Assembly (NCBI RefSeq): GCF_033153115.1
Contig: NW_026889795.1
Span: 11,222,001 to 11,286,000, forward strand
DNA: 64,000 bases
From: Saccostrea echinata
Lineage: Eukaryota
Reading direction: 5' to 3'
Both the position numbers and the translations under genes were made by a program. Each line of letters starts with the position of its first letter. Within the stretch, counting starts at the first letter, position 1. Below are positions 3,601 through 51,175 of the stretch, piece after piece. The notes under the pieces were generated by a model. It was not told the DNA's origin. It was given only the letters and a program-made list of their open reading frames with translations, and did not search any database.

Positions 3601-6600
3601 ATTCGCAGTAAATTAATGAGAAGTGAAATAATGCGTGTTCCCATTCATTTCTTAATCTTTATATGTATGACTTTTCTTAACAGGGGTCTGCGCTTTGCTA
3701 GTGAGGCGTCCGAGTTCCTTTTAGGGACCCCGACCCCCCCCCCCCCCCCCCCAGATTCGCACATGTTGTATAATGCTATCATGATGTCATTTGCAAATCA
3801 CTTCACATTGTGCAGAGCAGATCCATTAGACATAATGTCATGGTGTCTGTAATCATTTCAGTGATAAGCATAATTTCACTTTGTTTTTCACTAAAAAAAA
3901 AAAAATAGCATAAGTACCTATATCTGACCACTGACATGTTGCATGCGACTTGATTTTGCCATTACGCACGTGTCAGAATTTTAATTCTAATTATCTAAAG
4001 AGCTAATGCGGAGTAATTTGATGCACAGTAATTTAATTCAAATTAAATTAATTTGTAATCTCTGTGTAAATGGGATTCAAATTTAATTTGCTGTAACTTA
4101 CATTTGATTCAGATTACTAGTAAATTCTCGGTGTGAACAGGGCATAAAAGTATTTACTGTTCTTTCTTTCAGCTTTCGAAGGAGGATGTACCGGTATTAG
4201 AGGATTTGCCAGTAAGTTGTCAATATTGAATACATGTATTATATATGTTTACTGCTATCTTGTTCTTAATATCAAAAAGTAATCAATCAAATGAGAAATC
4301 ATAAAAGTGGCAGTTTCTCAACATATATGTACATGTATACATGTATATCAGATTCTTTGATTATTTTCAGCTAATGGACAGTGAAGTAGCAGCATTTTGT
4401 GATGTAAGTGTATACCATATTAAATATCTTTAAAAAGTACTATTTATTTTTCAAATTGGATTTTAGCAGTTTTTCCCAAGAACACTTTTTTATACAAGTA
4501 TGGATACATCAGCAAATGTTTCTTTATTGTAGGTCTTGGAAAAGAAGATAAAGAGAAAGGAGGTTTGACATTATGATACAGTTATAGCAGGATTTCTTGG
4601 CGGGTGTAAAATTTGGCGTTTTGCCTGTTCAAATGTATGCCAATCATTTTGGTGTAATTAATTTTAGCGGACACAGGGTTTGAACACATTGCAAAAGAAC
4701 ACTAAGAAGAATACTGAATATTTTAGTGATTAAAATTTTAGCGGGCTACTACCAAACCACTAAAATAAGCCAAAATTAGTACCCCGCTATACGGTATATT
4801 GCCTTGAAGTGTTCACTTGAAGAAGTTCACTGCTCATAACTTACTTCTCAGTAATTCTTTGTAAACCCTATTTCCCAGTACATGTACTTGCACACATAGT
4901 ACAATGTAAACTACTTTATTTGCCCTTGAATGATCAAAGGCCATTGGAAAAAAAAATAATTGGACTTACATAAAGTATTATGTTAATGCTTGGAATTGTT
5001 AATTCTGTCTAGAAGGGTAAGTTTTGTACCTGGTATGTCTCTAAACCTATATTCGATCTCCAAAACCAATAGGCTAATTTCAACCAAATTCATATTAGGC
5101 CTTCAAGGGTAAGTAAGGAGATGCCAGAATAGAAGATCAAAGGTTCACAGGTGAAGATATAGAAGAAAAAAAGAAATCTGTAAAAAAAAAAAATCTCCTC
5201 CTGAACATTAAGACCATGTTAGTCATTTTGGAATTAAAGCATCCAACATGTTGAATCAAACTTAGTAAATCACATTCTCTTGGGGCTAGATTTGGGCCAA
5301 ATATAGGATTAAAATTTTTATGGGAGTGGAAAGGGGAAAAATGCAAAATCTTCTAAAGATCAACAAGGCAACCGTCTCTTGGATGAATTTTATGGCTTAT
5401 GGGCTCTTGTTTTCAAACGTATTTGGTGGTCATATTAGGAACTGAAAGGCCTATTAATCATAATTTTAAATTGCTTTTCAACTTCAAGATGGCAGACGGA
5501 ATAGCCTTGACATTCCCAGACAATGGAAAGATGGTGACTGTGGTGTATGAAAATCATGGGGGAATGTCATTTTCTAGGGCCTTTCATCATACAGACACAG
5601 TACAGGTATGATACATATGATGCATGAAAAGTGCACATTATCATATCATAAACATAATGAAGACAGTAATCCTTGTATATGTATTTAACAAGAGTTATTA
5701 CTATTGAATCAATTTTCTTCTTATTACATGATTTGGATTTAAAGTAACAATTTTTAAGATAGATGCTAACTTGGCCATCATGAGTTGTTACATGTAAGAA
5801 ATAAATTGAAATGATACGTTATATGATGAAAAGTCATCAATGGGATACTCTAGTAGCCAGCAAATTTGAGAATGATTTTCTCACTATAAGTGAGCATTTG
5901 ATAGTAGAGTAATAAATTTTTGGCAATTCTAAATTTCAAATTGAAAGAATTCGAATTTAATTTTTAAAAATGTCTACAAATTTTGGATATAATATGGCAT
6001 TAAAAAAAATGTTCAAGCAGCTCTGGTATGTACATGTAGGTCACCATCTGCAATTTTGGAGTGAATGGTGTTTTGAATGTATACATCTCATAGCATATTA
6101 AATGAATAGAAATATATTTTCTTCTGAATTTAATGTACTTTTAATGCACATATTAAGCTGTCTTATTCACACAAAACAACAGTAATTGGACAATTATTTA
6201 ACATCACAGTGGAGCAACAGAAAAATGGATCTCACATAAAAGATAATAATTGAAATTTTTTTTTCCAGAAAGAAGTCTTGCACCTTTGTATATTGATGGT
6301 TCTTTTTTTTCAGAGTGTGTACACATTTATTTGTCAGATTATTGACCCAGAAATTCTCCCTTCTGTATTCCATTTGGAATGCATTTCACCAACCACCTGT
6401 ACAGAAAGAGAATGCATTCATTGTTTTGAGCTCACAGAGTGTTTTGAAATGCCAATTGATAAATTGCCATCATTGTTGGTATTGAAAGAGGGGGTAAGAA
6501 AATTATACATATATCTTTTAAACATGGTTTGTTTCTTTACTCTGTACTTCCATAAAAGAAAAACTTGAGTCTTGATGCTTGCAGTGAAACAAAACTTACT

Positions 6601-7212
6601 TCATATATTTTACTTAATTTCTTTCTCAGACAAAAAGGTTCTAAAATATTTTTCATCAGCTTTTTTGCTGATAACTGATGTCATAGCTTCAGAACTGTTG
6701 CATTAAGGTTTTATATTTTAGTCTTTGACCATAACACTACAGATCCTGTGATGCAAATATGGTCAAATTTACATTGCAAGATTTTCTGCGCATGGTGGGG
6801 GGATGACCAATATACTCAATTGTTTTGAATTTCTTGTAGGATGGCAGAAAATTCAAAACAATTGAGTTTATTCGTTGGTAGAGACGACTGTAACAAGGGT
6901 TACAAAATGAATAAAATATACAGGTTGGTTAAAGAATGTGCCTGGAATTACGGAATGAAAGGTTGACCAATGCTGGAAAGTGAGAATTCTCCCATACCAT
7001 GCGCAGAAAATCTTGTGACATAAATTGCACTGAGATCTGCAGCGTAATGGTCAAAGACCATGGTCAAAGGTTGTGTAAAATCATAAATCTACAGTTTGAC
7101 AGCTACTGATGTTAATGAACAATTTTAATTCTTTTATATGTATACATTTCAGAATTATCTGGTGGATGAAACCATGACATTTTATGGAACTGTGCTTTTA
7201 AAGAAAAACTAG
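688..7212 (+). CDS. 3' part (12 exons) of a microexon-rich gene with an acidic linker and a C-terminal UBX/ubiquitin-like domain
   Basis: GT-AG exons 688-738, 825-941, 1391-1438, 1933-1983, 2080-2196, 3307-3381, 4173-4211, 4371-4403, 4533-4562, 5489-5605, 6314-6493, 7153-7212. Every length is a multiple of 3 and the frame is open. The C-terminal KMVTVVYENHGGMSFSRAFHHTDTVQSVYTFICQIIDPEILPSVFHLECISP resembles the UBX pattern R.F...DT+..VY.F+......F.L....P. Confidence 0.72.
3577..4143. mobile_element. PIF/Harbinger-like MITE (mirror ~50256-50830)
   Basis: Imperfect TIRs GACCTGTTCACACAGAGA ... TCTCGGTGTGAACAGGGC. Confidence 0.5.
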
Positions 7213-7496
7213 ACTGGCGGGTTCTACATAACTGTCCTGTTTATTTGTGTTCATCTTTTGATTAAACTCTTAACCAAAGTTTACTGAAATCAGAATGCCT
7301 GTCTATCGTAAACAATTTTTATCAGAAGACTATTCAGTATTTTTATGCCCCCAACCATGAAATGGTCAGGCATATAGTGTATATCATTTTGTTTTCATTC
7401 CATCACAGTAAACTTTTTTGTTGGGTATACAAATGAGTTGCTTTGTAATATGTGTCTTTATTTTGCTGATTGAGAAATAAAGACTTGATGGTTTTG

Positions 7497-8990
7497 TTTT
7501 TAGTTCATCTCAGCTGAAAGGTCAATTGAGCTTTTCTGATCACCAATTGTCCATCCGACCATTTAGCTGTCCATCCATCTGTCTGTAAACATTTCACATT
7601 TTCAACTTCCCAAGAACTACTAGGCTGATTTTAAGCAGAGTTGGTACAAAGCATTCTTGGGTAAAGTGAAGTTTAAATTGTTAAAATGAAGAGCCAAGCC
7701 CCCTTACAAGGGGAGATAATCAAGAGAAGACAAAAATAGGGTGGGGTCATTAAAAATTCTCAAGAACCACTTGGCAAGAAAAGCCGAAACTTAAATGGAT
7801 GCATACTGGGATAGTGTAAATTCTAAATTGTTCGAATCATGACCCCCTGGGATAGGATGGGGCCTCCATGGGTGGTCAAAGTCTTGCATGGTATATATAG
7901 GAAAAATCATCAATAATCTTTTCAGGAACAACAAAAGATTAGTCATTTATATTGCAGCATCCACAGGTAATGTGGATTCAAGTTGATTTAAAACATGACC
8001 CTGGGGTAGGGTGTGGCCACTATGCTTGATCAAAGTTTTACATGGGTATAAATAAGAAAAATCTTCAAAACGGAAATCAATTTCACATGGAAGCGAATTC
8101 TTTTCAATGAATTGTTTAAGACAATTAAGCACTTTAAAGTGACCATTCTGTTCGACTTTTCATCATTTGCCCTTAGATGTCGTATCTTAAGTTTATTGGA
8201 TCATGATATTATTAGCTCTTCTGAGCAGAAGGCTTCAAAGAGCTAATGCTATGGCAATTTGTGCAGTGTCCATCAACTTTTAGGAATATGGGCCATAACT
8301 CAAGAACCCCTTGACCAATTTTTGTCAAATTGTCAGAGTATCTCTGGTCAATTGGCTCTCATTTATACTAAAAACAGGGTTGTGACCCTTAAGCAAGGGA
8401 AGATAATTGAGAAAATGATATAAAAAGTACAGGTTGCTAAAAAAATCTTCTCAAGAAGCAGGGGGCAGATTATCACAAAACTTGCATACAAGAATGAGGA
8501 TATGTTGTAGATTATGTTTTGTCAAAACTTTGATATTTTGCTTCCTATAAGGCAAAGGGTCATCAAGTCTTGTCAATTGATGCATCTTAGGTTACATATC
8601 AAGTTGACTCAAAAGTAGGCCACAGTGACCTACGTTTTTGAATATTTTCAGATACCAATTGGCTTAAAATCAGCAAACTTTGTCAGCTACTTCATCTTGG
8701 GTCCTCAAAATGATTCAATTAAAAAGAAGGTCACAGTGATCTACTTTTGGAATTTCAAGGTAATATTTAAATATTTCAATTAATATAATGCTTTGAATCA
8801 TCAAGCTTTGTCAGTTGATGCATCTTGGGTTCTCAGAGTGTGTTAACCAAAATGAAGGTAACAATGACCTACTTTTAGAATTTCAAGGTTTTATCTAGAT
8901 AAATAGAATACTATGAGGCTTCAAATACAAGTGATAGGTATGTTGTACAATTTATCAGAAGAGTGATTCAAGGCCCTTGGACCTCTTTCG
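7497..8990 (-). mobile_element. Two adjacent decayed HINE-like elements between the UBX-like and BTB genes (mirror ~45440-46925)
   Basis: TTTTAG(C/T)TCA..CTGA hairpin ends, CCAT/CTGT microsatellite, ~120-bp internal repeats, AGGCCCTTGGACCTCTT end. Confidence 0.55.
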
Positions 8991-9361
8991 TTAATTTGTC
9001 ATTGTATGAGAAATGTCCAGGAGTAGATTACCTCCAAATTCCTTTGATGGATATATGTCTAGTGATGTATTGATGTTATACAAGGCAATATTACAGGTGT
9101 GTTGAGGGAAGAACATTTTACCGGGTAGTTGATTTTTTAAACGCATGTACTTATTACAAAGTAAGGCTATATAATTATACAGATATACATGTGGACTAAA
9201 TAAAAAGATTTGAAATAAAAGTGACCTTTTATTATAATTTTTGTATGGTGAATAATAATGAAATATATAAAGAGAAAGGTATGAATTGAACAATTAATAA
9301 TGTTTCTATTGCCACTCATAACTTAGATAGATCTCAAGATTTAGCTTGTAAACTCATTATT

Positions 9362-10630
9362 TTAACGTTTTCTCAAAATGAGCCCCTTAATTTGCCCCGT
9401 TTGTACATTTGTTTCTCCAAAAGCATCTTGGAAAGTAATTTTTAGAGTGCTTGTCTCCCCCATTTGAACATTTATAGTCGACAAGCAACCTACACCATTA
9501 TAAGTGGGCCCTCCACTTATCCGCACAACTACTCTATAAACGGTGTCTTTAACAAGAAGCAATGGTTTTGGAAATATTACTGGAATTTCTTTGTAGTTCT
9601 GAGTTTTCTGCTTAGTTTGGCCTTTTCCTAAAAGCTGGCCATTTCCAGTATAAAGATACATGGAAACCAAAAGACCTGCTTCACATACAGTCTCTGTACC
9701 GTAAACAAATATTCCTCTTAAATAGAAAGTATCTAAGTTTATAGTGAATGATATCCTGTCCCCATTTAGGGAATTATCAACAACCCATGTAGGATGTAGA
9801 CTGTGACGTAAAAAGCGATTGATAATTATGTCCTGGTCTGTTATTAGACATCTTATCTTGGAGTGCTGTTCTGGTACTGGTTGTTGTTCAACTGTTGAAA
9901 AGTACACCATGATCTTCAAAGATAATTCATTGTCAATTATGCCTTTATTAACAATATTTTCCAAAAAAAAGTCCATTGACATCATTCCGAACCTTAGAAA
10001 GGGACTTATGTCATGCCAGGTGTGGGGAATGTCTTCTTTAACTTTTTTAGTCCAAAGATTGATGTGATTAAATAGAAGTTCCTCATGTATGCAGAGACTG
10101 TCTCTTTTAACAATATTCAAGAGTAATTCCAGAGGAATTTCTTGGAATTCTTCAGTAGTTATACTTAATAATACTTCTTCAATGTGTTTGTCTAAAAATT
10201 CAAGGTCTTTGTTTTTGATATCTGTTACGCTGTTTTCATGAGAAATAGTTAAAATTTTAAGAACAGTATTTTTTGATATGTTTTGTTCTAAGAATATGCA
10301 ACATTTTTCCATAAGTTCAGTAACACTATAATAGTCAGCAATCTGGTAAATCTCTTCTACATTATCTAAAGTAATGTGTATTTCAGAAGTGTACAAGAAC
10401 TCTAACATTTCCTTTGTATGTTGAATAGAATGAACATCACACTGAATTATGTTTGATTCATCACTGGCATGATTCCACTTTCCACAAAGCCGGGCCTCAA
10501 ACCATTTTGATCCAAGAATTAATACAATTTTATGGGTTTCAATGATGGAATTATCTTGAAGCTTTAACTTTACGTCACAAAGTCTCTGGTCTCTGAAGGC
10601 TTGTATTAACTTTCTCCCAAGAACTGACAT
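9362..10630 (-). CDS. BTB-BACK-PHR domain protein (BTBD1/2/3/6-like architecture), 422 aa, single coding exon
   Basis: BTB: LCDVKLKL..HKIVLILGSKWFEARL..MLEFLYTSEIHITLDNVEEIYQIADYY. BACK: EEFQEIPLELLLNIVKRDSLCIHEELLFNHINLW..LRFGMMS. PHR: INRF..DRISFTI..RGIFVYG..PVIFPKPL..TNVQTGQIKGLIL. Confidence 0.92.
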   Translation of the reverse strand: MSVLGRKLIQAFRDQRLCDVKLKLQDNSIIETHKIVLILGSKWFEARLCGKWNHASDESNIIQCDVHSIQHTKEMLEFLYTSEIHITLDNVEEIYQIADYYSVTELMEKCCIFLEQNISKNTVLKILTISHENSVTDIKNKDLEFLDKHIEEVLLSITTEEFQEIPLELLLNIVKRDSLCIHEELLFNHINLWTKKVKEDIPHTWHDISPFLRFGMMSMDFFLENIVNKGIIDNELSLKIMVYFSTVEQQPVPEQHSKIRCLITDQDIIINRFLRHSLHPTWVVDNSLNGDRISFTINLDTFYLRGIFVYGTETVCEAGLLVSMYLYTGNGQLLGKGQTKQKTQNYKEIPVIFPKPLLLVKDTVYRVVVRISGGPTYNGVGCLSTINVQMGETSTLKITFQDAFGETNVQTGQIKGLILRKR

Positions 10631-12249
10631 TTGTGTAGTCTGAAATACGAAATAGCTTCATATATTAAGACAAAATGACTATGCTTAGGTCACAATGGTT
10701 AATGGAAAGTCACCTTGACCTCATCTTACAATGTGTATACACTGATTACCCGGTAGATGTTTATAGGAACATACAAACAAAGTAGGATTCATTGCCTGAT
10801 CTAACAAATGTGTCTGAAAAAAACGTGTACATGAATTACACATAGAAGTGATGTTAAATTCATATGAATGCAAGGTAATTGTACAATAAATTTATAAAAG
10901 CTAGTTATCTTTAATCTTTCCTTCACTGTTACTTGAAGTTTTGCCAGTACATATAACAGTAACATATAACTTTAATAGTTTGACCCTCGATCTTCCAACC
11001 TCTTAACTTATCCAAAGAGGGGGACCAGTGAATAAGTTTGATGACGATCAATCAAAAGATTCTCAAGATACTCATGGCTGTAAGAACCGGGCCGGTTCCC
11101 CCTCCCACCCCCCAATAATTTTGCCAATGTGTAGAATACACTGTACTATAGAAAATATACATGTAGCTACTATATGCTTGTGCCCCCTCAATAATAACGT
11201 CCGATGACCTTTTTTTTTGCTTGTCAAGGAATTTTGGTAGTTGATAGTGCCCCCCAACTGAAAATGTATGGCTGTGCCCCTTCAAAGTGAAATTGCTTCC
11301 TACGGGCCTGATACTGATCAGACCAACTGACTGCTTAAAATGGCATGCCCTCTTTTTTCAAGCAACACAAATATACAAGTCTTTCAATGAGGATTCAAAC
11401 AAACAAATATCATTACATATTTACTTCATATATTTAATTAAACATATATAATGTACAAGTATATACACAAGGCTATTAAAGAATCACGATGAAGACTATA
11501 AACTTAAATAACAAAACACATATTAAGTATGAAAGCCCTAGCACCAACTGTTCAAAAGTTATGGCCAAGGTTAAAGTTTGGCAATTTTTTGTAAAAGTGG
11601 GTCACACTACAAGGTCAAGGTCACGAGGTCAAATTTGGTGGTACCCAAAGAAAGATTTTGTCACAAGGAATACACCTGTGAAATAGGAAATTTTTGATTT
11701 TGGGGGCATAAAGAGTCAAATAAATACAATATTGTTCAAATATATATGAAGTAAAAGTGGTTCATTCTAAATTTCCTCATTATACTAAAAGCTTTAATCA
11801 ATACATTTCAGTGTGTTTTATAGTGGGCCTATAGATAAGGTGTGAAAAGCTTATTTCAACTCTCCCCTCCAAAAAATATTGCTGAGAAATTCAGTTAATT
11901 ATGCACATTCACTTCTTTTATCCTTGATGGAAATGAAAACAGAGCATCCTTGAAGTACAATAAGTATAACATAATACATCAGGTATCAAAAAAATATTGC
12001 TAACATAAAGAGAAAATATCAATGAATGAAATTGATATTCTAAAGTTAAAAAAAAAAGATAAGGGGGCATATATCTATAGTGTTTCTGGATTTTGAACAA
12101 AGTATTTCTTCCTGCTATAAGCCAGTACATGTAACTATCTGACAGTAGAAACTATTACATAACTGGAATTTTTACTGCAGTTGTGACATTACATTGTGAC
12201 ATGATCTACCTTCATACATACATTCATACATATAATGATATTTCATATA

Positions 12250-15200
12250 TCAAGTCAATAAAAGAGACATAAACTCGCTTAGAAAAATGTACAGATGGCG
12301 AGCACAAGTCATGTCAGTTATGTTGACTGGGAAAGGCAAATTATAATGGCTCAATATAAATGAGGCTACGGAAGCAAAATCCTCGTCAATCTCCTTGAAA
12401 TTATTTCTGACAAGTCTCTGTAACTCAGTCACAACGTTTCTCTGAACAGGATGTAAGTAGTTTGAAGCACCTGAAAAATGAGCAAAATAATTAAGATTGT
12501 TGGAGCTAAAACAGTTGTGAAATATTTTATAACACATGCATATGATACATTTTCAATCATTTTTGTGTGCTTTTGGTACATAAAGATGAGAAACCAATGA
12601 ATATACAATGAATACCTGTCATGTATGTGCTTCCTTTTCTATAACATTTAGCAGAGAGTAGCATCTGCTAAATCTTGTATATAGCTAAATGTTTTCATGT
12701 ATATATTTAAAATAAGCATTTCCTGGAATGTGCTAAATTAATTCTACACTTGCATAGTAAACTAGAAGTGTTTGTGAAACACTGATGCCACAGATAATTT
12801 TACTGGTTTAGCTAATAATTTACTCATACCAACAACTTCAGGATTTTGAAACAATACTTCTGGAATTCCATGCAGGGTATCTCCCAGCTTCTGTCTTCGT
12901 ATGGAATGAGTATTCCATTGGTCCATTATATCTTTTAGATCTCTCTTTATCAGTGGAAGATAAACAAATTGTATACAGGATCTAAAAAATGCAGTTGATA
13001 TATGTAAATATACCGGTATTTAGACTGTTAGTAGCAACAACTTTATTTGCAATTCATTTTTTGAAATAATAAGGTATGCAAGTGGCCCTGGACAAATCCT
13101 CTCATCTGAGTCATGCTGTCACATGAATATTCAAAAAGACTCCCTCCCATACTTGATCAATTTCAGTTATAAGGCTATATACCAAGGTACATGTACATGC
13201 TAACATACATGTAGGTGCACTAAGTCAGAGTGTTATTTTAGAAACTATAGTGTTGTTCTTCTAACATTCCCACAATGTAATAAGCGAAAATCAAAATTTC
13301 ATGTTCACATTGAATGTAGCTGTTGCAATGGCTCTTCCATTAATTGTTACTTAATACCCAAAGAATAATAGTTTTGAAATATGAGTCATGTTTGCAGGCA
13401 AGACTGGGAGTTATAAAATGTAAATATAAGCATTAATTGAATCACTATTTTTTAAAAAATGAAGTCTCATAAGTCCAACAGTGTGTGCAAACAAATTTTC
13501 ATAATGTGCTACCACAATTACAAGTTACTCTATTTGTTTACCATGTTTAAACACACTGTTGCAGTTAGGAGACTACATCTTTCAAGAAATAATAAATGAA
13601 TGCTTTAATATAGCAGTTTCTTTTCAAAGCATAAAAAATGCTACCATAATTTCTTTTGTAAGTACAAATGACATAATATTTTTATCCTCCATGTTACAGT
13701 CTATATTTTGTTACCATTTACAGAGATATAGACGACACTTTATTATCAATGACAGGGTATCATTCTTATCCAAGACAAAATAAATAGACATGTACATCTA
13801 ATATTTCTTTTCAAGGAGGTTCATCTGAACTCCTTTTTCATCTATACATACTTATGTAGAGGATTTCCTATTTCCAGCAGTTCTTCATACACCAATCCCT
13901 AATAATAAATTCCCAAGATATATTTTCGTATTTTTTTATATTTACTATGGCCATGCATATTACCATAAACGAAGTACATGCATAGTTAAAGCTGAACACG
14001 CTTCGTAAAAAGAATGTGTCCGACATATTCGATTGGAGTCGTGTTCAGCTTTAACACACTGTAAAATGTAACTTTTGTCAGTAAAATACTTGTTTTCCTA
14101 AATAAATTAAGAGAAACATTTTTGTAATATTTCAGATGTGGCAATAACTTACTTTGAAATGATCCATCCAGAAATCTGCTTTCATTTGCTTTAAAATGCC
14201 CCAAAATCTTTCAATTCTCTACAATTAATGTTTGTAAAAAACGTTATTAAAACTTGGACATATGATTTTCTTTCCAGAAAATGTTATCTGTGTGTGTTTT
14301 GGGGGTGTGGAGCTGTTTAAAACATGTACAATGCTAACCTGATTTGCAGTCGAAGTTCCAAAAGACACTGCACTTGGATCTGTCTTAAGAAATGTTTGGA
14401 ATGTTGCGATGATCCCATTTTCTGTGCCAGTATCAGCTCTTATCTTTTGAGGACAACCTTAAACAGACTATGATGTTATCAATATATGCCTTCCCTTCTA
14501 ATTCATAACAAGTATTTTGAAATTTTGGTGGCTTAATTTCAGAAATCAATTGACATTTCTTGCAGCACACTTGCAATTGTAACTTGTCATTAAACATAGT
14601 ACCAGGTGATTCTGTCACTATACCTTTCATAGTATGAACTGCATTCAGGAAGTATTCTGCTACAACCTCCGGTCTTTTATTAGTCACATCTGCTTCCAGC
14701 CATATCAACTGTCTGGAAAATCTTTCAAAATAAATTGAAAATACGGAAGTGGTACAATCTTAGAAAGACACTATATTTTTCTCTTATATATATGCAAAAT
14801 AAGAAATTAGATTTTATAGTTGAAAGTTTTCCATTTATGTGAATGTTGTTGATCCCATCAATAATTTAAAACAACATCTGCAATACAGCAGATTAAACAA
14901 ATAAATTCAAGTCTTTCTCATGAAAGTAAATATACCAGATTTTTAAAACCCTTAACTTACTAAAAAGTGTGATGGAAGAACATAATGGAAGGATGGAAAG
15001 ACAGAAGTTGGAAAGAGCAAAGTACGGAAGACAGACATGGCAAATGATATATGTTTTGGCCATATTCATGGTGGGGCATAAAAATGTCAGATATGAAATG
15101 CTTCTATTTGAACAAGACTAATCATCGGCAGTGGCAGATTTAGAGGGGGCCTGGGCCCCCCTTTTGTGTCAAAATATCCATAAGATTTAAGAAATCATAT

Positions 15201-18200
15201 TTTTTTGGGTGTGGCTGTGGGCCTCTACCCCAACCCCAAACTGGTCAGCACCCCCCCCCCCCCTTTTCCAAGATACCTGGATCCGCCACTGATTGGCTCT
15301 GCTGCTTTCCTTCAAAAGATTTTTTTTTTATATTTACCTACGGTAATATATTTTCCTATGTAAAACTTTGAATGATCCCCTATTGTTGTCCCACCATAAC
15401 CCTAGAGACAACTAGAGATAACAAGAAATCTGTGAGCCAGTGCTCACTAATAATACCCCTGCTCTGTTGTGAATACACAAGTTCAGTTATGGACAGACAC
15501 AGTAATAATCAGGAAATTGACATCGATTTGTACAAAAATGATTCGCAACATAAAGCATGCCTAAACAATGAGTGAGTTAAAATTTCAAGCATCTGCGATG
15601 AGAAGTTGCTGAGAAAACTGCGACCAAAATTTCTTATGTATTGTACGGACAGATGCACGGATAAACAAGAAGTTGACATCAGATTCGTATAAAAATGAAT
15701 CCCACCACATGGCATGCCTAAACAAAGAGTGTGCTAAATTTTCAAGCAGCTGCAATGAGTAGTTGCTGAGAAAACTGCGACCAAAATTTGTTACGGACAG
15801 ACAGACAGAAGGACAGACACACAAGGGTAAAACAGTATACCCCCCTCTCCTTTGGAATGGGGGTATAATAATTGAAAAAAAAAATGAATATACACTATGT
15901 CCAGAAACTTTTACATCTGGTCCAGTGGTTCTTGAGAGGAAGTTTTTTTTTTTTAATTCACTATATTTTCAACTAATCCTTGTACAAGAGCATGGTTCAT
16001 CTGGAAGAAAAAAAAACCCTCACCCAAGGATGCTTTGTGGCAAGTCTGGTTAAAATTGGTCCAGGGTTCTGAGAAATATGAAATGCTAAATGCATACTGA
16101 CAGACAAGCAGACAGATGGACAGAATTCAATTAGAAAACCACATTTGAGCTTTTAAAAAAATATAATTTAAAATTTTGATGGTTTCTTTTTGTATCTACA
16201 TGTAAGTAAAATATTTGATTTCAGAAATTATTATACTTTTATGAGAAATCCATGTAGAACTAACATTAAATCAAACCACGCCAAAAAATCTTTTTAATTG
16301 AAAAGGAAATGCTTCAAAAACAATATGTCCACAATTATACAGTCCAAAAGAATATTTAAAGTTTTAGACATGAAACTACGAAAATCACATGAAATTACTT
16401 TTTTTTTTTTTTTTAAAAAATAACTTAACATATTGTATTTGAATACATTGATCATTAGTGTGGAATGTTTAAATTAATCAAACAAAACAACAAATCATAC
16501 CCATCAATGCAACCATGAATGCTTATACCATATGGCTTTAGTTTGTCATAACCATCTATAAATGCAGTTTCATGTTTGGAATTACAGTTTAATTTCTGCT
16601 TGCAGGTGTCTCATAAGAAGTTAAGACATTTGATATATTTGTTTAATTTTAAAGCATTTCAAACCTATTTCAAATATCTTTTCTTGACATGACTGACATT
16701 TAGGACAGATATCTACTATAAAATAAATGATATGTTTGTGAAACACTGATGCCCCAATCTCAACCAAGCCTTGGAGTGTCCATCCTTAGAAGCATCATCC
16801 ATGCTAATTTAGTTAAAGTATGGCTAAAATTCACTCATCTGGAAAATATAGGGCAAATCCAGCATTTGAAGCAGAAAGGATGGTGTACATCCCAGCATCA
16901 TCCATGCAAGTTTGATCCAAGTAGGGCTTATAGTAACATGGACATGTATAGGAATGAAGCTGCTTCAAAAACATTAACCTGGTCAATCATCTGAAAAATG
17001 TAAGTAAGATCCAGCATCTGAAGCAAGTCTGGTAGTGTCCATCCCTAGATGCATCATTCCTGCAAGTTTGGTCCAGGTAGGGCTTATAGTTTCCAAATGG
17101 ACTTGCTCCTAACACTTTTACAGGGATGTGACGCTAACACCCACACCAACAGTATAGCATAAGCTCATCTCGACATCATCGGGGTGAGCTAAAAATAAAT
17201 TACACAACCTACTTTTCATCTTATCAAATTGTAAAAGTTACATAAATAAATAAATAACAGGATTGATTTTGACTCTTCATTCATGAACCAAAAGAAGGCA
17301 ATATTACACTTACCCAAATGCCAAACAAAATTTGGACCCTATAAATACACATTGTACAAATAAGTCCCTGACTTTCATATTCTGTACAGCAGGAAATTAG
17401 CTCGTGGAAACAATATTTGCAGAAATAAGAACCCCTCAATATCATATAGTGAATAATTCTTTTAAAAAATGATAAATTGAAATATTACCATTATCTGTGG
17501 TTAGATTCTTTAATTCTCTCTGTGTTTCATTGCAAACATAAAAGCAGTAATTAATAAAAGCAGAGAAACTGATGTAGACCGTCTTGCTAATAATGAAGGT
17601 TTATGGATCAATTTAATCACTTAATACATGTAGTTGTTTGTGATTTTGAAGCTTAATTTAATTAATAATTAATTAATAAATATAATTCTATAACTTAATA
17701 GTCCACCAAAAAGACGTGCAAGGTAATTATCCACGAAACACACAGAGTTAACCTTTACATGTGCTTATTACTTATTCTTATTACCTTTAATCGAGGCACT
17801 TACCTAGTAAAAACAAAGGTTACACATTGATTTAGTTATACTAACAGTTCAACATAACTACTAATAGAAGGGAAAGGAAAAAAAAAAACAAGGGAAAAAA
17901 ATTAAAATCATCAGGATGCGTGACAACGCTTTGACTTCAAATTGGTATTGATCTGATATTTCGTTATATTTAATCGGGTTCAGAAACGACATGACATAAT
18001 ACGCAAGGAAAATACATGCAGTGCTGAATTAATAACATTTCCTTTCTGCAAATTCAAACAACCCTGATTTACTAGAAATTTAAAAAATTGCGATTTTAAC
18101 CTGCTGTACAGTACATGTACAAGGTATATTTTACTTTTATTCTTGCATAATTATTTTTCAAGCTTTGAAGTGTTGAATTTTGTCACATTTATGAAATTAA

Positions 18201-20478
18201 TACATTAATAAATACTGAGATGATCAATGTTTCATAATTTTTCTTTCAGTCTTCGGTCTATACCTTACTAAAGTATTGCCTTCTTCTCAGTCTTCTCTGC
18301 TTCCTTCTCTTTATCCCATCTTCATCCAAAAGACGAACTATATCTCTTGCTATGGACCTGTATCATTAAACATTTATTTCATTTAATGTATCAAAATTTT
18401 ACAATTATTGTCTATTTTTGAGGGCAAATATTATAACTTTTAAGCCCAAGAGAACCACCACCAACCAAGGCTCAGCCATGCAGTCTTAACAATGGTTTTT
18501 TAAGGGTGAAATTTTTCAATACAACTCTCATTGAAAGACCAAAATATTTGTTATACCCGGGTATTTTACTGAATGGTTCATGAAATATAATTATACATGC
18601 TTATAGATTCCATGCAGTCAGCAATTTTTGGGAACATGACTCATCATTTTTAATGCTAACTGTTGCTACATTCTGTTGCATTGGATGGGCATGGTTTAAT
18701 CAGTCATTGGAATATAGTGTTTTTATCAAATGTTTCTCAATGAATCAGATTCAACTAATTTACATGAAAGTATAACATCAAAATATTTGCATGTTTGGAT
18801 GTATTTAATCATGGATGGAGGAATGGACTGACTTTGATTATATACTTACCTGGTAATATTCAGCTGGTGTTTCATTTTTATAATTCTTCTTAGACTTTCA
18901 GCACCTGAACATCCATTCAGTATTTCTTTCTACAGAATATTGTAAATTGCATGTATAAGGTTTGCTCTATATAACTTTATGTGTATTTTAATTAATATAT
19001 GCAAGTTTTAGCATAATTTTCCGAATTTAATAGTACACTTTTTCTCCTTAAATACATGTACATGTGTAATGTATGTAATTTTAAATTTTGGCAACATTGA
19101 TGATTTAGAGCTGAAAAGACATCAGGGATATGAATTCCACTAAAATATGTCAAATTCCACACATCTTTCATACATATACATCCAACAAATAAGTTAATCA
19201 TTGTGTTCTAAACTTTCATTGAAGAATTACCGGGTACTTAATAACAGTTAAAAGAACAGAAATATTTAACATGCACGTGCACCTTTATATTTATGAATTT
19301 TCTAAGAAATAAAATTATTACCTGTGCAATATCAAATATTTCATCTAGAGCAATGTCTGCAAGCCTCCTTTTCAAACCAAGTCTAGGTAGAACTTTTCTT
19401 GTTAGGCAATTATAACTGCAAAATTTTTAATCACATCGAAGCATCATCATTGAATGACAATTTATGTATTTGATTAAAAGTCATGATACATTACTAAGAC
19501 TTCCAAAAATATTTTTTTTTAAATTTTGTATTATAATACCTTATGTCACAGTTATGGTTTCTCTGGATCAAATAATGGATTAAACGGTAGTTAAAACCCT
19601 TATAAAACAATTCTTTTATCTTTTCAAGTATATCTAAAAGAGAAAAAGAAACCTTTTAGCATAAAGTACTGATCATTTTATTATATAATCTACAGTTCAG
19701 CTTATACAAGAACATGATCTAGAGGATTTTCCCGATTTTCCCCAGAATAATGAAGTTTAACTGTATATCAAAACAAAACATTGCAAATGTCCATTATTCA
19801 TAAGATATACACTGCTGATCAGACTAAAGACAATGCTGAAAAGGAACAGCTTATTCTGATAAAGCAAAAAACAGCAGAACAGTAATTTTGAGCCAGGCTC
19901 ATTGCTCTACTCTTAGAGCAATAATTGCCTTTTTGTCAGGGTGTTCAACTGGATATGCTGCTTCCTCACTGCCAAATAAAATTTACAAGTTAAAAAAAAA
20001 GTATGTATATGCTCAGACGCTTTTGAGACAATACAACACTAAAATTAAACAAAGTAAAGTAAACTGATAAATTTTCTTAACAAACAAAATTAATGGTAAT
20101 GTACTTTGGTTTCTCACATGTGCCATGATGTACTACGATTTATTAATATGGTTTTAAAAGATGCATGTATGCAAAAAGTTTTCATCCAGTCCCCCTCAGT
20201 GTCTGTAGCACATACTAAAAATAAAGGTAGCATAACCAGGATAACACTAATGCAGGGAGCACGCGACCTGTGGTACACTTTGATGCAGAACTTCCCACTG
20301 AGCACTCATCTGAGCATAAACGTTTGTCCTTGCTGCATCAATGTTTATTTTTGTACATGGTGTAAGACCCCAGAACGATCCATGTGATAAATTCAATGTT
20401 CACTATTCTGTAAATGAGCTCTGCTCTCTATACTTCTGAGTACTTTGATTTTAAATATCACTTACCTTGTCTAATCAT
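12250..20478 (-). CDS. 13-exon DDE transposase, 385 aa, IS3/IS481-like integrase core with a probable helical N-terminal DNA-binding region (IS3EU type)
   Basis: Exons: 20478-20466, 19633-19540, 19415-19322, 18929-18850, 18357-18264, 17338-17314, 16555-16501, 14721-14624, 14457-14339, 14218-14153, 13898-13852, 12981-12830, 12470-12250. All introns are GT-AG and phase-compatible; total 1158 nt with no internal stop. Motifs: RRLRRRQYFSKGPNFVWHLDGYDKLKPYGISIHGCIDGFSRQLIWL, KIRADTGTENG, GTSTANQRIERFW, QWNTHSIR, HGIPEVLFQNPE. The 13-nt first coding exon is the least certain. Confidence 0.9.
15128..15291. mobile_element. Short hAT-like MITE; similar G/C-run MITEs at ~2983-3143 and ~11073-11310
   Basis: CAGTGGCAGATT ... 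GGATCCGCCACTG inverted ends with internal C/G runs. Confidence 0.45.
15420..15870 (+). mobile_element. HINE-like element in transposase intron 7 (mirror copy ~39735-40175)
   Basis: ACAAGAAATCTGTGAGCC start, two ~157-bp units, GACA microsatellite, terminal ATACCCCC..GGGGGTAT hairpin. Confidence 0.65.
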
Positions 20479-21940
20479 CTTCACTTCAGCTTATAATCTT
20501 TGTAAAACTACAGATAAGGAATGCAATACATATAACACCCAGTTCACTTCAACAGTATATAACTAAATATACGTTTACAATGTTAATGATAAGAAACTCC
20601 TTATACCATATGCTTTACTCTCAGGGTCATTCAGGGTTGCAAATAATCATTAGCCCACTCTCAAAATTTAAGTGTTTTGTCTGAAGGTAAGGGTTGATAT
20701 TTTCCTGGAAAATTCACTAGCACAAGGGTTACTGATCATTAAAAATTTCTAGCCCAAACCTCAAACTAACTAGCCCAACAATTTTTTAATGCAAAATAAA
20801 TTAAAACACAACAAAAGTAAATGTTTCAAATGCTTTGGTAACAGAAACAAATTAAAACTAGTTTTCAGTCAAAAGAAACCAGTTTACATACATAGAAAAC
20901 AGAAATAAAGTCACAAGAATATTTTCTGGTCTGCTAGTCTGGCAGACTATAGTTACATTTAAATTAGCTAGCCCTTGAAGTCTTAAAACAATTAGCCCCA
21001 GACTTTGGCTACCAATTTCAACCCCTGTTGAAGGCTTCAAACTCTTCAGGATGTTATTGCCCACATAGCAAGTAAAAATCTTATTGGAACTTCAAAACAT
21101 ACTGAATCGTGTCATCATTACAAATATCTTAGATTACAAAAACCAAGTGGAAATTTCAAACAAGAGGTATCTAACACCACAGAAAAACAATAGGGCATAG
21201 CTTTTTGGATTATGATAAAAGAGGATCCAAAACTTTTTCTAATCGAAATTGTGGAAATTAATTAAAAATGGAATTTGATTTGAAGTAAAGCAGTATGCAT
21301 AAAGAGTTTGTTTCTCTTTTCTTTATAATTGTTTTCAACCTTTTATTTACATTAATGTGGGCCCCAAAGCAACAATACAGGCTAGTAAAACTCGTGAAGT
21401 TAGGATCCTACATGACTTCTATACTTTCAGACAAGCAATATCAGTCTTAAAAGACAAGTGTAAAAAGTCATACCTTGTGGGCAATGACACCTTTGTGAGG
21501 AGCAACCGTGAGAGAATTAAATCACGCGCATGAAAGAAATTCACGCGCACATGTCTGAATTTCAAAAGTGCGAGGGAAAAATTCGCGAAAAAGAATAAAT
21601 ATACACATGCAACTTATTTGGAACTCACCAGGATTTTGACAAAAAGGTTGCATAATGTGTGATAAAAAATTTATCAAATCATATTCCCTCTTGCATAGTC
21701 AGCTTAAGAGTTACACAGAGCTCATTTTGTTATATTCCGAATACATACAAAACCTAGTCTTTAAATCAAATTTACTTACTTTTGCATGTTGCAAAGACAT
21801 TCTTTCAATACTTTTGCAATATGTACATCAACAAGAAAGTTTTTCTGTCAAAATTCACATTTTGTCATTAGAAAAGCACAAATAATGAACTTGTACTAAA
21901 TAACTAACTACTTAACATGCTAAACTAGGCTAGGGTTTCA

Positions 21941-22910
21941 TTCCCTGACGAGAAAATTCGAACTAGGGGCCGTTGCAGAAGAAAGTTAGGTTTGAAAGTT
22001 CTACACCAGTATACCTTAACATTTAAGTTTGAAAGTTCTGTTCAGTTTAACATTTAAGCTTAAAACATTGCTGGTGTGGCGTTTACTTCTTACCGTGTTT
22101 GTCCTTGCTTGTAACTTTTGTTGTCGAAGACTGAGATCACTGTCACTTCAACAGTAAAATCAACTGAACCCACATGTAAGGATCTCTCTCACATAGACGC
22201 TTGGTATCCGTCACGCTAGAAATAATATTTCTTCACGCTCAAGATAATATTTCCTTCACGCTTCAAATAATGTGTGCAAATCTCTCTCACATTAACGCTT
22301 GTAGCCGTCACGCTAGAAATAATATTTCTCCACGCTCAAGATAATATTTCCTTCACGCTTCAAATAATGTGTAGTCTGTCACAATAATAATCGTGTCTCC
22401 CAGCGTTTCAACATAATTATTGTTTCAACAAGGGAGAGTTCTCGTTCCTGTCACTAGAAAAGAAGTTATCTTTCCCGATGAGAAATAAAAATAAAGTTTC
22501 TACGAACAATTAAGGCGCACATTATTATTGTTGCAAATATGGTGTGTGGTTTTTTTTTTTTTAACGTGCATACATTTTTATTTCCATGAAAATGGCTTCT
22601 TTTTTTTTCTTTTTTTTTAAATTTTCAAACAGTAGTTGTTACATGTATGCCTTCTTATAAATCGTTGAAGTAAACGTAATACAGCTGTAATATGAATCTA
22701 TAATCTTGGTGCTAAATAAAAAATAATGTACACATCGACCGACAAGATGATAATTATTGCTGTTGGCAAGATTATAGTTGTGAAACAAAACATCAGAGGA
22801 TAAAATTATTATTATTATTGGGCTAAATAAAGATAATTTGTACACACATTATGGTAGTATAGTATGGAAACGTGATAATTGTAATTTTTGCGGGGAAATA
22901 TAATAATATG

Positions 22911-22960
<50 letters not shown>

Positions 22961-23163
22961 ATTTTTTTTTTTATTAATTTTTGGTACAATTATAAATATA
23001 TAGGAATAATAATAATGTGGAGGTACCCAAATTATTATTGTTGCAGAAAAATAATAATGTTGTAAAAAAGCAAGTTTTTTGTTTTTGTATGAGATCATTA
23101 TTTTTGGTATAATTATATAGGAAAAAATAATAATAATGTGGGGGTACCCTACGGCTTTCCATA
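21941..23163. repeat. Complete ~1.2-kb TIR of copy 1
   Basis: Matches 61660-62729 in direct orientation from TCCCTGACGAGAAAATTCGAA to CTTTCCATA, and matches 23164-24243 inverted. Confidence 0.88.
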
Positions 23164-23227
23164 CCTCCACATTATTATTATTCCTATATTCTTATAATTA
23201 TACCACAAATTAATAAAAAAAAATAAT

Positions 23228-23273
<46 letters not shown>

Positions 23274-24243
23274 ATATTATTATATTTCCCCGCAAAAATT
23301 ACAATTATCACGTTTCCATACTATACTTCCATAATATGTGTACAAATTATCTTTATTTAGCCCAATAATAATAATAATTTTATCCTCTGATGTTTTGTTT
23401 CACAACTATAATCTTGCCAACAGCAATAATTATCATCTTGTCGGTCGATGTGTACATTATTTTTTATTTAGCACCAAGATTATAGATTCATATTACAGCT
23501 GTATTACGTTTACTTCAACGATTTATAAGAAGGCATACATGTAACAACTACTGTTTGAAAATTTAAAAAAAAAGAAAAAAAAAAGAAGCCATTTTCATGG
23601 AAATAAAAATGTATGCACGTTAAAAAAAAAAAACCCACACACCATATTTGCAACAATAATAATGTGCGCCTTAATTGTTCGTAGAAACTTTATTTTTATT
23701 TCTCATCGGGAAAGATAACTTCTTTTCTAGTGACAGGAACGAGAACTCTCCTTTGTTGAAACAATAATTATGTTGAAACGCTGGGAGACACGATTATTAT
23801 TGTGACAGACTACACATTATTTGAAGCGTGAAGGAAATATTATCTTGAGCGTGGAGAAATATTATTTCTAGCGTGACGGCTACAAGCGTTAATGTGAGAG
23901 AGATTTGCACACATTATTTGAAGCGTGAAGGAAATATTATCTTGAGCGTGAAGAAATATTATTTCTAGCGTGACGGATACCAAGCGTCTATGTGAGAGAG
24001 ATCCTTACATGTGGGTTCAGTTGATTTTACTGTTGAAGTGACAGTGATCTCAGTCTTCGACAACAAAAGTTACAAGCAAGGACAAACACGGTAAGAAGTA
24101 AACGCCACACCAGCAATGTTTTAAGCTTAAATGTTAAACTGAACAGAACTTTCAAACTTAAATGTTAAGGTATACTGGTGTAGAACTTTCAAACCTAACT
24201 TTCTTCTGCAACGGCCCCTAGTTCGAATTTTCTCGTCAGGGAA
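23164..24243. repeat. Left TIR of copy 2, missing the outer ~140 bp
   Basis: Reverse complement of 21941-23022; begins CCTCCACATTATTATTATTCCTATA. Confidence 0.85.
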
Positions 24244-26171
24244 TGAAACCCTAGCCTAGTTTAGCATGTTAAGTAGTTAGTTATTTAGTACAAGTTCATT
24301 ATTTGTGCTTTTCTAATGACAAAATGTGAATTTTGACAGAAAAACTTTCTTGTTGATGTACATATTGCAAAAGTATTGAAAGAATGTCTTTGCAACATGC
24401 AAAAGTAAGTAAATTTGATTTAAAGACTAGGTTTTGTATGTATTCGGAATATAACAAAATGAGCTCTGTGTAACTCTTAAGCTGACTATGCAAGAGGGAA
24501 TATGATTTGATAAATTTTTTATCACACATTATGCAACCTTTTTGTCAAAATCCTGGTGAGTTCCAAATAAGTTGCATGTGTATATTTATTCTTTTTCGCG
24601 AATTTTTCCCTCGCACTTTTGAAATTCAGACATGTGCGCGTGAATTTCTTTCATGCGCGTGATTTAATTCTCTCACGGTTGCTCCTCACAAAGGTGTCAT
24701 TGTCCACAAGGTATGACTTTTTACACTTGTCTTTTAAGACTGATATTGCTTGTCTGAAAGTATAGAAGTCATGTAGGATCCTAACTTCACGAGTTTTACT
24801 AGCCTGTATTGTTGCTTTGGGGCCCACATTAATGTAAATAAAAGGTTGAAAACAATTATAAAGAAAAGAGAAACAAACTCTTTATGCATACTGCTTTACT
24901 TCAAATCAAATTCCATTTTTAATTAATTTCCACAATTTCGATTAGAAAAAGTTTTGGATCCTCTTTTATCATAATCCAAAAAGCTATGCCCTATTGTTTT
25001 TCTGTGGTGTTAGATACCTCTTGTTTGAAATTTCCACTTGGTTTTTGTAATCTAAGATATTTGTAATGATGACACGATTCAGTATGTCTTGAAGTTCCAA
25101 TAAGATTTTTACTTGCTATGTGGGCAATAACATCCTGAAGAGTTTGAAGCCTTCAGCAGGGGTTGAAATTGGTAGCCAAAGTCTGGGGCTAATTGTTTTA
25201 AGACTTCAAGGGCTACCTAATTTAAATGTAACTATAGTCTGCCAGACTAGCAGACCAGAAAATATTCTTGTGACTTTATTTCTGTTTTCTATGTATGTAA
25301 ACTGGTTTCTTTTGACTGAAAACTAGTTAAATTTGTTTCTGTTACCGAAGCATTTGAAACTTTTACTTTTGTTGTGTTTTAATTTATTTTGCATTAAAAA
25401 ATTGTTGGGCTAATAAGTTTGAGGTTTGGGCTACACAGCAAAATGTGCCACGTACGTATCACATACGTTAAACGTATGTGATACATACGTGACTTTACGT
25501 ACGTATCACATGAAAAAAGCACCACGTACGTTAAACATACGTTTTCACACGTATGAATATCATGCGTGACACGTACGTTACACATACGTATTGACTACCA
25601 TACGTTACACACGTTGCACACATACGTTATTCATACGGTTCTTGTATGAATAACGTACGTGCAACGTGTGTGTAGCGTACGTTTTGAGAAACATGCGTTT
25701 AACATGATTTGTATACACTGCTCATATGATAAATGTTTAAGTACCATACATCTGTCAAACCATGGTTAAACATATGTTTTGAACATTCTTTTTCACACAT
25801 TGTAAACATATGTGAAACAAAAATAATGTGCAATTAAAATATTCATTTCATGCATTTGACATAATTTTCTTCAAGGGCTTATTTTCTTTTCATCTGTTGA
25901 ATGATCCACATTTTGAAGGTACATATCTGGATATCCTTTACCTCAAATTTCCTGATCCTAATTGCTCTTTAGGCAATCACAACAAAAGACATATTCATAT
26001 TTAAGCCAAATTTAATGTTGAGATTTTAACATCAATTCATTCTTCTGCAATTCCCTTTCATCTGTAAAGAAAAAGAAAATATTAAATGAATTTGCACAGT
26101 TTTTTTCTGAACATTATTATTTTCCACATATAACTCCACATATAACTCTTGGTCGATTCCCTTTAGAACTA

Positions 26172-26997
26172 AACAAGAACTGTCCAATTTGGATAAATAC
26201 CCCCCACTGAGTTTTTCAGAGAAGATGCCAAGTCACTAATACTAGTATTTGAGGATCTAAAAGGTATTCACAATTTGTTTAAACATTAAGAGTTTTCAAG
26301 TATTTCTCTGTTGGAAAGTATGGATGCATTATTTATCCATTTTTTCTACAGTACCTGACTATAGGTCAGGATCATGACACATGTACCCTCAGGTCATAAA
26401 CAATCTTTGTGTGAAGTGGATACTCCCAACATCCAAAATTATTCTCCATAGGAAAGATACAGACTGAACACGAATTATGAACTTTTTCTGTAAGTGACCT
26501 TGAACTTGTCCAAATGACCTTGGGTCAAGGTCATGACACACCATCAGGTCATAAACAATCTTTGTGTAAGATGGGAACTCTCCAAGTTTATCCATAAGAA
26601 AGATATGGACCAGACACGTATTATGATTTTTTTCTGTCAGTGACCTTGAACTTGCCCAAATGACCTTGGGTCAAGGTGATGACACACCCTCAGGCCATAA
26701 GCAATATTTGTGCAAAATGGGAGCTTGCCAAGTTTATCCATAAGAAATATATGGACTGGACACAAATTATGAACTTTTTCTTCCTGTGACCTTGAACTTG
26801 CCCAAATGACCTTGGCCATGGGTCAGGGTCATGACACACCCTCAGGTCATGAATAATCTTTGTGTGAAATAGTAGATTCTAATGTTCCTCCGTAAGAAAT
26901 ATATGGACCAGACATGTTTGCACAGACAGACAAACAGACAGATGAACAAGGTGATTCCTACATATTCCCCTAAACTTTATTTGCAGGGGGATAAATA
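26172..26997 (+). mobile_element. HINE-like element with 146-bp internal tandem repeats
   Basis: TGACCTTGAACTTG at 26495, 26641 and 26787; ACAG microsatellite and a terminal CCCCT..AGGGG hairpin. Confidence 0.65.

Positions 26998-51099: not shown

Positions 51100-51175
<76 letters not shown>

Follow-up and report, generated by a model that had tools for sequence, protein, structure and literature searches.

Sequence evidence for a giant three-gene IS3EU/GingerRoot DNA transposon with an intron-rich, alternatively spliced transposase gene in the oyster Saccostrea echinata

Introduction

IS3EU/GingerRoot DNA transposons have been described as elements with TA..TA ends and 6-bp target-site duplications, whose transposase lacks HHCC and which carry extra genes, one of them running opposite to the transposase (PMC10045372, PMC6839031; these and all papers cited below are represented here by excerpts). 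Fungal IS3EU ends are given as TAYGG..CCRTA (PMC12730594), while structure and function of the group are described as largely unexplored (PMC11934779). Conserved introns within transposons are mentioned for GIN elements (PMC3424704), and in one survey the basic DDE gene is called intronless (10.1101/2021.09.26.461848). P elements are known to hop locally and to form double insertions (PMC7776569, PMC5932611). In this study, we explored a stretch of 64,000 nt from Saccostrea echinata (the window; GCF_033153115.1, NW_026889795.1, positions 11,222,001 to 11,286,000), for which a preliminary description had reported a hidden 13-exon transposase gene. Judged by its sequence features, this gene belongs to copy 1 of a giant three-gene IS3EU/GingerRoot DNA transposon with an intact, intron-rich transposase. 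With good confidence we propose that the gene encodes an IS3EU/GingerRoot DDE transposase of a mobile element and gives rise to two splice forms, of which one likely sets a ceiling on active enzyme. The earlier description had noted neither the 31.6-kb element nor its two further genes nor the nesting of family members.

Results

Exon chain and reading frame of the transposase gene

The transposase gene of copy 1 lies on the minus strand and spans 8229 bp, with 13 exons (Table 1) that join across 12 GT-AG introns into 1158 nt, i.e. 385 codons and a stop. The in-phase chain put forward in the preliminary description was borne out, as was the splitting of the first catalytic Asp codon, since Asp134 is divided G|AT between exons 6 and 7. 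The motifs WHLDGYD, RADTGTE and QRIERFW start at residues 131, 191 and 224, respectively. A custom spliced aligner, supplied with a protein profile while intron positions were withheld, returned the same 12 introns, and the exon chain therefore goes beyond chance. The remark that intron density hides the gene from open reading frame (ORF) scans also holds, because a stop-to-stop scan (at least 100 aa) yielded just two frames over the gene, each covering one exon; among nine exons scanned singly against Pfam, exon 12 was the one that matched. The gene is missed by ORF scans but not by evidence-based annotation: public models of sibling copies in Saccostrea echinata describe the same 385-aa protein under the label 'uncharacterized', with P0002 letter-identical to copies C58 and C42 and P0005 letter-identical to C43a, and near-identical models exist in S. 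cucullata.

Two further features were observed along the gene. An approximately 400-bp repeat with inverted ends (window 20633-21028) overlaps the 5' leader of the transposase transcript, into which a contig reaches up to 20778, and a similar repeat is present at the opposite end of the element of the C77 family. A piece of intron 10 of about 390 bp is absent from copy 1 (14036-14041) and present in copy 2 (41559-41949) and the other copies compared.

Domains, fold and predicted catalytic residues

PF24764 covers residues 124-293 (E 3.5e-38), and 6,560 representatives match at E up to 0.001. Among 97 aligned relatives, D134, D193 and E227 are kept in 95, 94 and 93, respectively, with domain matches to PF24764 in all 97, to rve in 49 and to HTH_21 in 23. 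The AlphaFold model of the sibling protein P0002, which differs from copy 1 at six residues, has a pLDDT of 94.4 and shows D134 on the first core strand, D193 just past a later core strand and E227 on the next long helix. This is the usual placement of the triad in DDE enzymes. In structure searches, the core (residues 120-315) matched PFV integrase (Z 15.4, rmsd 2.9, 155 aligned), IstA (Z 15.3, rmsd 3.4, 178 aligned) and also TnsB, with Z of 14.7-15.4 across PDB 8q4d, 9bw1 and 5frm at 12-16% identity. The fold match comes from structure search alone, a profile search of the transposase against PDB sequences giving no match at E up to 1. Residues 1-50 and 55-112 gave weak matches to helix-turn-helix (HTH) domains (Z 6-7), and the N-terminal part is without HHCC, no residue before R112 being conserved at 90% in the 97 relatives. 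The D-D-E transposase suggested from motifs alone is thus supported by PF24764, by the integrase/IstA/TnsB fold at Z about 15 and by conservation of the triad, so that both the profile search and the structure prediction proposed as checks led to an integrase-type, RNase H-like core.

The element, its ends and its copies

Self-comparison of the window revealed a large inverted repeat involving 1-20772. From the flanking DNA and six other loci, we could delimit an element of 31,622 bp that begins 8,458 bp ahead of the window, ends at 23163 and is bounded by inverted repeats of about 1.18 kb, 81% identical, with the ends TATGG..CCATA. The exact 26-nt family end occurs 108 times in the genome, reading TATGG or TACGG, and the 96 of these termini that were read contain 30 duplication pairs, namely 27 of 6 bp, two of 7 bp (one being copy 1) and one AT run. 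The paired spans range from 0.2 to 71 kb, many of them measuring 10-16 kb without this transposase exon nearby. The transposase gene itself is present in 11 dispersed copies with a divergence of 0.05-2.2%, six of which have an open frame and intact splice sites.

The features of IS3EU/GingerRoot elements are found here: TA..TA termini, mostly 6-bp duplications, the DDE core motifs, absence of HHCC, an opposite second gene and a first Asp that, at residue 134, lies within the range of 100-300 residues from the start. By eye, the core motifs match those of IS3EU-1_CGi, IS3EU-4_CGi and IS3EU-1_DR (supplement text of PMC10045372). This placement is based on ends, duplication, motifs and fold, the tree discussed below having been computed without Repbase reference proteins. 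An integrase of an LTR retroelement or provirus was rejected, the terminal repeats being inverted and not direct, HHCC being absent and the gene being stand-alone and spliced.

Several copies showed peculiarities of their own. Copies C42 and C58 differ by only 0.08% and have breakpoints in common, which suggests a very recent move or haplotypes; neither outer end pair displays a duplication. At C40:3850550-3969055 three near-identical tandem copies all carry a transposase defect, and one duplication junction is seen twice, suggesting array growth after nesting. Copy 2 contains a 9.4-kb insertion (window 25434-34858) that is bounded by inverted CAC..GTG ends, seems to have duplicated a TA and holds 168-bp tandem repeats near 28700-30090; this insertion probably represents a non-autonomous DNA transposon in its own right; 134 N occupy window 62429-62562 within the copy 2 terminal repeat.

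Table 1. Positions of the transposase exons, element copies and other genes in the window
Feature	Position	Strand	Remarks
Coding exon 1	20466..20478	-	13 nt from ATG; RNA contig runs on unspliced to 20778 as 5' leader
Exon 2	19540..19633	-	94 nt
Exon 3	19322..19415	-	94 nt
Exon 4	18850..18929	-	80 nt
Exon 5	18264..18357	-	94 nt; closes predicted two-HTH and basic N-terminal part (residues 1-125)
Exon 6	17314..17338	-	25 nt; first half of skipped cassette; final base is G of Asp134
Exon 7	16501..16555	-	55 nt; rest of skipped cassette; Asp134 completed by its first two bases
Exon 8	14624..14721	-	98 nt; premature stop of skipped form lies here
Exon 9	14339..14457	-	119 nt; Asp193 at 14434-14432
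Exon 10	14153..14218	-	66 nt; Glu227 at 14212-14210
Exon 11	13852..13898	-	47 nt
Exon 12	12830..12981	-	152 nt; alone matches PF24764
Exon 13	12250..12470	-	221 nt to stop; RNA contig runs on to 12094
Copy 1, part in window	1..23163	.	left end outside window at G000:C46:11213542
Copy 1, right terminal inverted repeat	21981..23163	.	about 1.18 kb, ends CCATA
Copy 1, target-site duplication CCTCCAC	23164..23170	+	7 bp; inside copy 2 terminal repeat
Copy 2, outer, inverted, defective	23164..62729	.	initial 147 bp precede copy 1 and are outside window
Copy 2, transposase exons 1-11	35153..42134	+	exon-2 donor GT>AT; exons 12-13 deleted, junction near 42275
Copy 2, target-site duplication CCTGAG	62730..62735	+	6 bp
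BTB-BACK-PHR passenger gene	9362..10630	-	intronless, 422 aa; under RNA-type contigs
UBX-like gene, 3' part in window	688..7212	+	multi-exon, faces transposase; C-terminal UBX-like domain; 5' exons before window
UBX-like gene, spliced exons	4371-4403, 4533-4562, 5489-5605, 6314-6493, 7153-7212	+	exons before 4211 approximate

Splice junctions in RNA-type contigs

The RNA data are assembled contigs of five runs marked 'RNA?', none being on record as RNA, which hold 13-14% of the words of the stretch, equal to its exon share. The contigs keep one path per bubble and carry no isoform ratio, tissue or strand information. All 12 transposase junctions are seen in these contigs, which, where readable, carry the alleles of sibling copies, as exact CT..AC joints, those of introns 1-10 in a four-run comparison and those of introns 11-12 in a separate contig set. 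Spliced RNA therefore exists, in line with the junction check that had been proposed. Introns 5-7, however, are spliced in just one of the four runs (X4, full chain of exons 5-6-7-8), while runs X1, X2 and X3 join 14721 to 18264, that is exon 5 to exon 8, with zero letters between. X1, X3 and X4 bear the same sample label, and X2 stems from another study. The length of the X1 contig fits a skipped transcript with leaders exactly (156+1078+300 = 1534 nt).

Skipping of exons 6 and 7 entails the loss of 80 nt, which removes Asp134, shifts the frame and brings a stop at codon 139 in exon 8, so that the skipped form encodes 138 aa. Splicing into another frame, which had been named as the outcome that would overturn the gene, is thus partly observed, three of four runs showing the exon 5-to-8 splice and X4 the full chain. 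An alternative splice form without an intact catalytic core, a membership feature of P-element-type splice control, is present. Exons 6 and 7 are retained in all 11 copies of this assembly that have exons 5 and 8, and among subtype differences beside the exon 6-7 splice sites none was seen that would explain the skip. The 138-aa product is likely able only to bind DNA, and skipping likely limits the amount of working enzyme.

Public gene models add some entries that were not counted as skipping: the absence of exons 6-7 from P0013 and P0026 appears to be a gap in prediction, and P0010 of the sister species, a 222-aa model that begins in exon 8, would be compatible with a skipped transcript.

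Nesting inside family ends

Copy 1 occupies a site within copy 2, in inverted orientation and 147 bp from the end of the latter; the duplication flanking copy 1 measures 7 bp and that of copy 2 measures 6 bp. Genome-wide, 11 same-direction end pairs 147-536 bp apart were observed versus 0.004 expected at random. The 16 sites flanked by family terminal sequence represent 13 distinct junctions, of which 8 are bordered by a duplication at either flank, in a count that leaves out C27 and C29:32490686, small elements matching themselves. The distance from the enclosing family end is about 150-540 bp in these distinct nested insertions. Five of 28 paired elements hold an inner end, always placed near an end (C3 by its flank), whereas the interior of the 28, amounting to 501 kb versus 34 kb of terminal zone, contains none. 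Copies 1 and 2 differ by 1.8%, while the nearest relative of copy 1 is at 1.4%, and likewise C43a and C43b differ by 0.8%, while C43b and C1 differ by 0.2%; since the closest relatives lie elsewhere, the inner copy is not the daughter of the outer one. At C58 a 14.5-kb element is nested in a 32-kb element, and the 39-kb C5/C11 family, with the same ends and the same three genes, contains a single insertion of this type, located some 235 bp from the end and accompanied by a 6-bp duplication. Elements were also observed 0.4-1.2 kb outside another family end, where they form chains (C9:49388906-49429910; C43:372469-373112; C11:1715866-1716253).

Age of the introns and related families

Of eight modelled intron-bearing loci, seven share eight positions (36.2, 67.0, 94.2, 152.2, 185.1, 224.0, 262.2 and 313.1) and the eighth, the apparently damaged C9, has seven of these; four other modelled loci are intronless, two further long-frame loci being left out of the comparison. 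The intron through Asp134 is found in five loci. All 12 intron positions recur in a sister family at 67% identity, with a dN/dS of about 0.12, and copy 1 versus C77 gave dN 0.21 and dS 1.73. In a quick, unrooted tree, which cannot decide between intron gain and loss, copy 1, C77, C11 and C72 form one clade and the intronless loci two groups. From the sequence comparison, the introns are old and a trait of mobile families. The host-gene-like intron density stressed in the preliminary description is real, but it is no sign of domestication: because positions are common to distant families, it reflects long vertical descent of a mobile lineage. In the modelled transposases of C11/C5/C72, Gln replaces the Gly that follows the first Asp, and position 195.1 holds an additional intron.

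Passenger genes

Besides the transposase, the element carries an intronless BTB-BACK-PHR gene, whose frame is open in nine of the 11 copies, and a multi-exon gene on the plus strand, five introns of which are spliced in RNA contigs. The C-terminal part of the latter resembles UBX domains (TM 0.65; feature score 0.89, a lead), and an Atlas search with its N-terminal part returned clusters from cnidarians and sponges only, all of them unnamed. BTB-BACK proteins serve as adaptors of Cullin-3, and p97 is a binding partner of UBX domains. The C77 family and the 39-kb C5/C11 family have retained both genes at 36-53% identity, and homologues of all three element genes exist in S. cucullata. A zinc-ribbon-like CxxC..CxxC exon (L013), about 7,200 bp before the window and conserved with the C77 family, is probably the start of the UBX-like gene. 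Two exons of this gene are duplicated internally (673-965, 1918-2229), a repeat also present in S. cucullata P0011. A public Crassostrea virginica model, P0003, fuses a transposase to pieces of the BTB-PHR gene, and the same gene pair is therefore found in another oyster genus.

Discussion

We propose a model in which two N-terminal HTH units, as predicted, bind the terminal repeats, while D134, D193 and E227 on an RNase H fold would cut the ends and join them to the target by cut-and-paste with a predicted 6-bp, sometimes 7-bp, stagger. For the family, HTH binding and DDE cut-and-paste are highly probable. Skipping of exons 6 and 7 would leave a 138-aa product comprising only the DNA-binding half, which may be degraded or, by analogy, act as a P-element-like repressor. 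Transposase sitting on the subterminal repeats of a resident copy would draw incoming elements to positions 150-540 bp inside that end, and the UBX-like and BTB-BACK-PHR genes would be long-held passengers with a putative action via the host ubiquitin system. Copy 1 could be a working source, although siblings are the copies seen in RNA. Taken together, one could imagine a self-limiting programme of giant bivalve IS3EU elements, combining a skipped-cassette repressor, safe havens at resident ends and UBX/Cullin-3-adaptor genes that blunt silencing, an idea which we regard as improbable in its entirety.

Several observations weigh against parts of this proposal. Within the family, 14 non-synonymous versus 8 synonymous codon changes are what would be expected of young unselected copies; the end pairs C42, outer C58, C14 and C29 show no duplication, and the duplication of copy 1 has 7 bp instead of the usual 6. 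Three nested junctions are found twice, so that some were inherited and are not new events. The skip contigs carry L235/G279/S335 (C1/C43b-like) and the full contig Q235, and the skip may therefore be copy-specific or come from a deleted copy; moreover, the contigs, with one path per bubble, give no ratios and come from runs labelled only 'RNA?'. Finally, where readable, the RNA contigs carry sibling alleles and in none of them the private alleles of copy 1.

That exon 6+7 skipping is a selected control appears possible, with slightly less than an even chance, and we assign a similar probability to a reading devoid of a regulatory role, in which splicing at the 25-nt micro-exon is noisy or the skip stems from a subtype or from a deleted copy. 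Exon 6 is tiny, pyrimidines are scarce in the exon 6 and exon 7 acceptors, and the C9 and C1b families do without these introns. The stop of the skipped form lies six junctions upstream of the last exon, and a stop so far upstream of later junctions usually triggers RNA decay, which speaks for noise and against regulation, as does the allele difference between skip and full contigs. On the other hand, the skipped path was retained in three of four runs from two studies, no other exon skip occurs among the 12 joints listed in the four-run comparison, precisely the first catalytic strand is removed, five loci from four related families have retained the flanking introns, and the public isoform P0047 also ends at exon 5. 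For nesting, tethering of incoming elements by transposase on resident ends is the cause that we prefer, if only by somewhat better than even chances. Local hopping, an affinity for open, AT-rich DNA, recombination or a faulty assembly instead of guided targeting would agree with the AT-rich terminal repeats, with the known local hopping and double insertion of P elements (PMC7776569, PMC5932611), with copies placed 0.4-1.2 kb outside an end and with the C40 array, whose twice-seen junction points to duplication. We nevertheless consider such unguided origins rather unlikely, as eight insertions are each flanked on both sides by a duplication peculiar to them, the positions are restricted to the zone of about 150-540 bp from the end with none in the interior, and neither the 14.5-kb element within the 32-kb one at C58 nor inner copies that are not daughters of the outer ones would be expected.

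With regard to autonomy, copy 1 is structurally complete by sequence, and for autonomous activity we see about even odds. Its potential autonomy, as claimed earlier, is favoured by an intact frame with all 24 splice dinucleotides in place, by two intact ends and by the target duplication, while the RNA contigs, where readable, carry sibling alleles. Alternatively, and with only slightly lower odds than a coin toss, copy 1 is silent or impaired within a real mobile family, and the siblings C58/C42, C1 or C43 supply transposase. Copy 1 is the most divergent copy (1.4-2.2% from the others), has the private changes T194 (beside D193), F350, K68 and K234, and lacks 13 nt before the exon-6 acceptor and 3 nt before the exon-9 acceptor; the public model with its F350 allele (P0006) has only 144 aa. 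Against such impairment, R3 and L59 agree with the sister-species protein, and the sequenced animals may simply be without copy 1. T194 occurs in one of 97 relatives, yet it need not be harmful because position 194 varies widely in the family. That the gene is instead a domesticated host-type gene copied by inverted segmental duplication would be compatible with the presence of 12 introns, with the splicing seen in RNA and with the purifying selection that acts between families. We rejected this candidate as extremely improbable in view of 11 dispersed copies, several of them broken, that have identical termini and different target duplications at different sites.

The proposed mobile, alternatively spliced IS3EU family is directly testable, as it offers a recently spread set in which intact genes, defined ends and evidence from RNA come together. 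Should the skip prove to be regulated, a second DNA transposase, independent of the P element, would be under splice control, here operating by exon skipping and not by intron retention. If nesting is guided, it would represent a self-targeting that builds clusters of 60-120 kb and long inverted repeats. In annotation, such elements receive the labels of ordinary host genes ('uncharacterized', 'kelch-like', 'FK506-binding protein 5-like'), which inflates bivalve gene counts.

Comparison with known systems

Double Ds elements of maize are a familiar case of same-family members abutting or lying inside each other. Similar arrangements are given by double insertions of P elements and hobo (PMC5932611) and by tandem-TIR (terminal inverted repeat) MULEs (PMC3903597). 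P dimers, however, share one host target site (PMC5932611), whereas the insertions described here occupy a zone 150-540 bp inside a resident end, with a new duplication each time, and cross subfamilies. With the Drosophila P element, the system has in common that alternative splicing leads to a full transposase or to a shorter product keeping the N-terminal DNA-binding part (PMC7776569). In the P element this is achieved by retention of intron 3 and the 66-kDa repressor is proven (PMC7776569), while here two exons are skipped, the repressor role is putative, the cut precedes the first catalytic Asp and the transposase families are unrelated. IS21 IstA, Tn7-like TnsB and retroviral integrase (8q4d, 9bw1, 5frm) possess the same RNase H-fold DDE core, but the element is without LTRs, and neither a reverse-transcriptase nor an ATPase gene was found among its genes. 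Giant size, ubiquitin-system passengers, own-end nesting and catalytic-cassette skipping were not found in the excerpted IS3EU literature searched, which excluded Repbase and the review 10.1266/ggs.18-00024. The closest likeness is thus to IS3EU/GingerRoot, with TATGG..CCATA ends here corresponding to the fungal TAYGG..CCRTA (PMC12730594), from which the oyster elements differ by their length of 31.6-39 kb, by inverted repeats of about 1.2 kb compared to 100-150 bp in GingerRoot, by 12 coding introns and by UBX-like and BTB-BACK-PHR passengers in place of alpha-kinase/TET.

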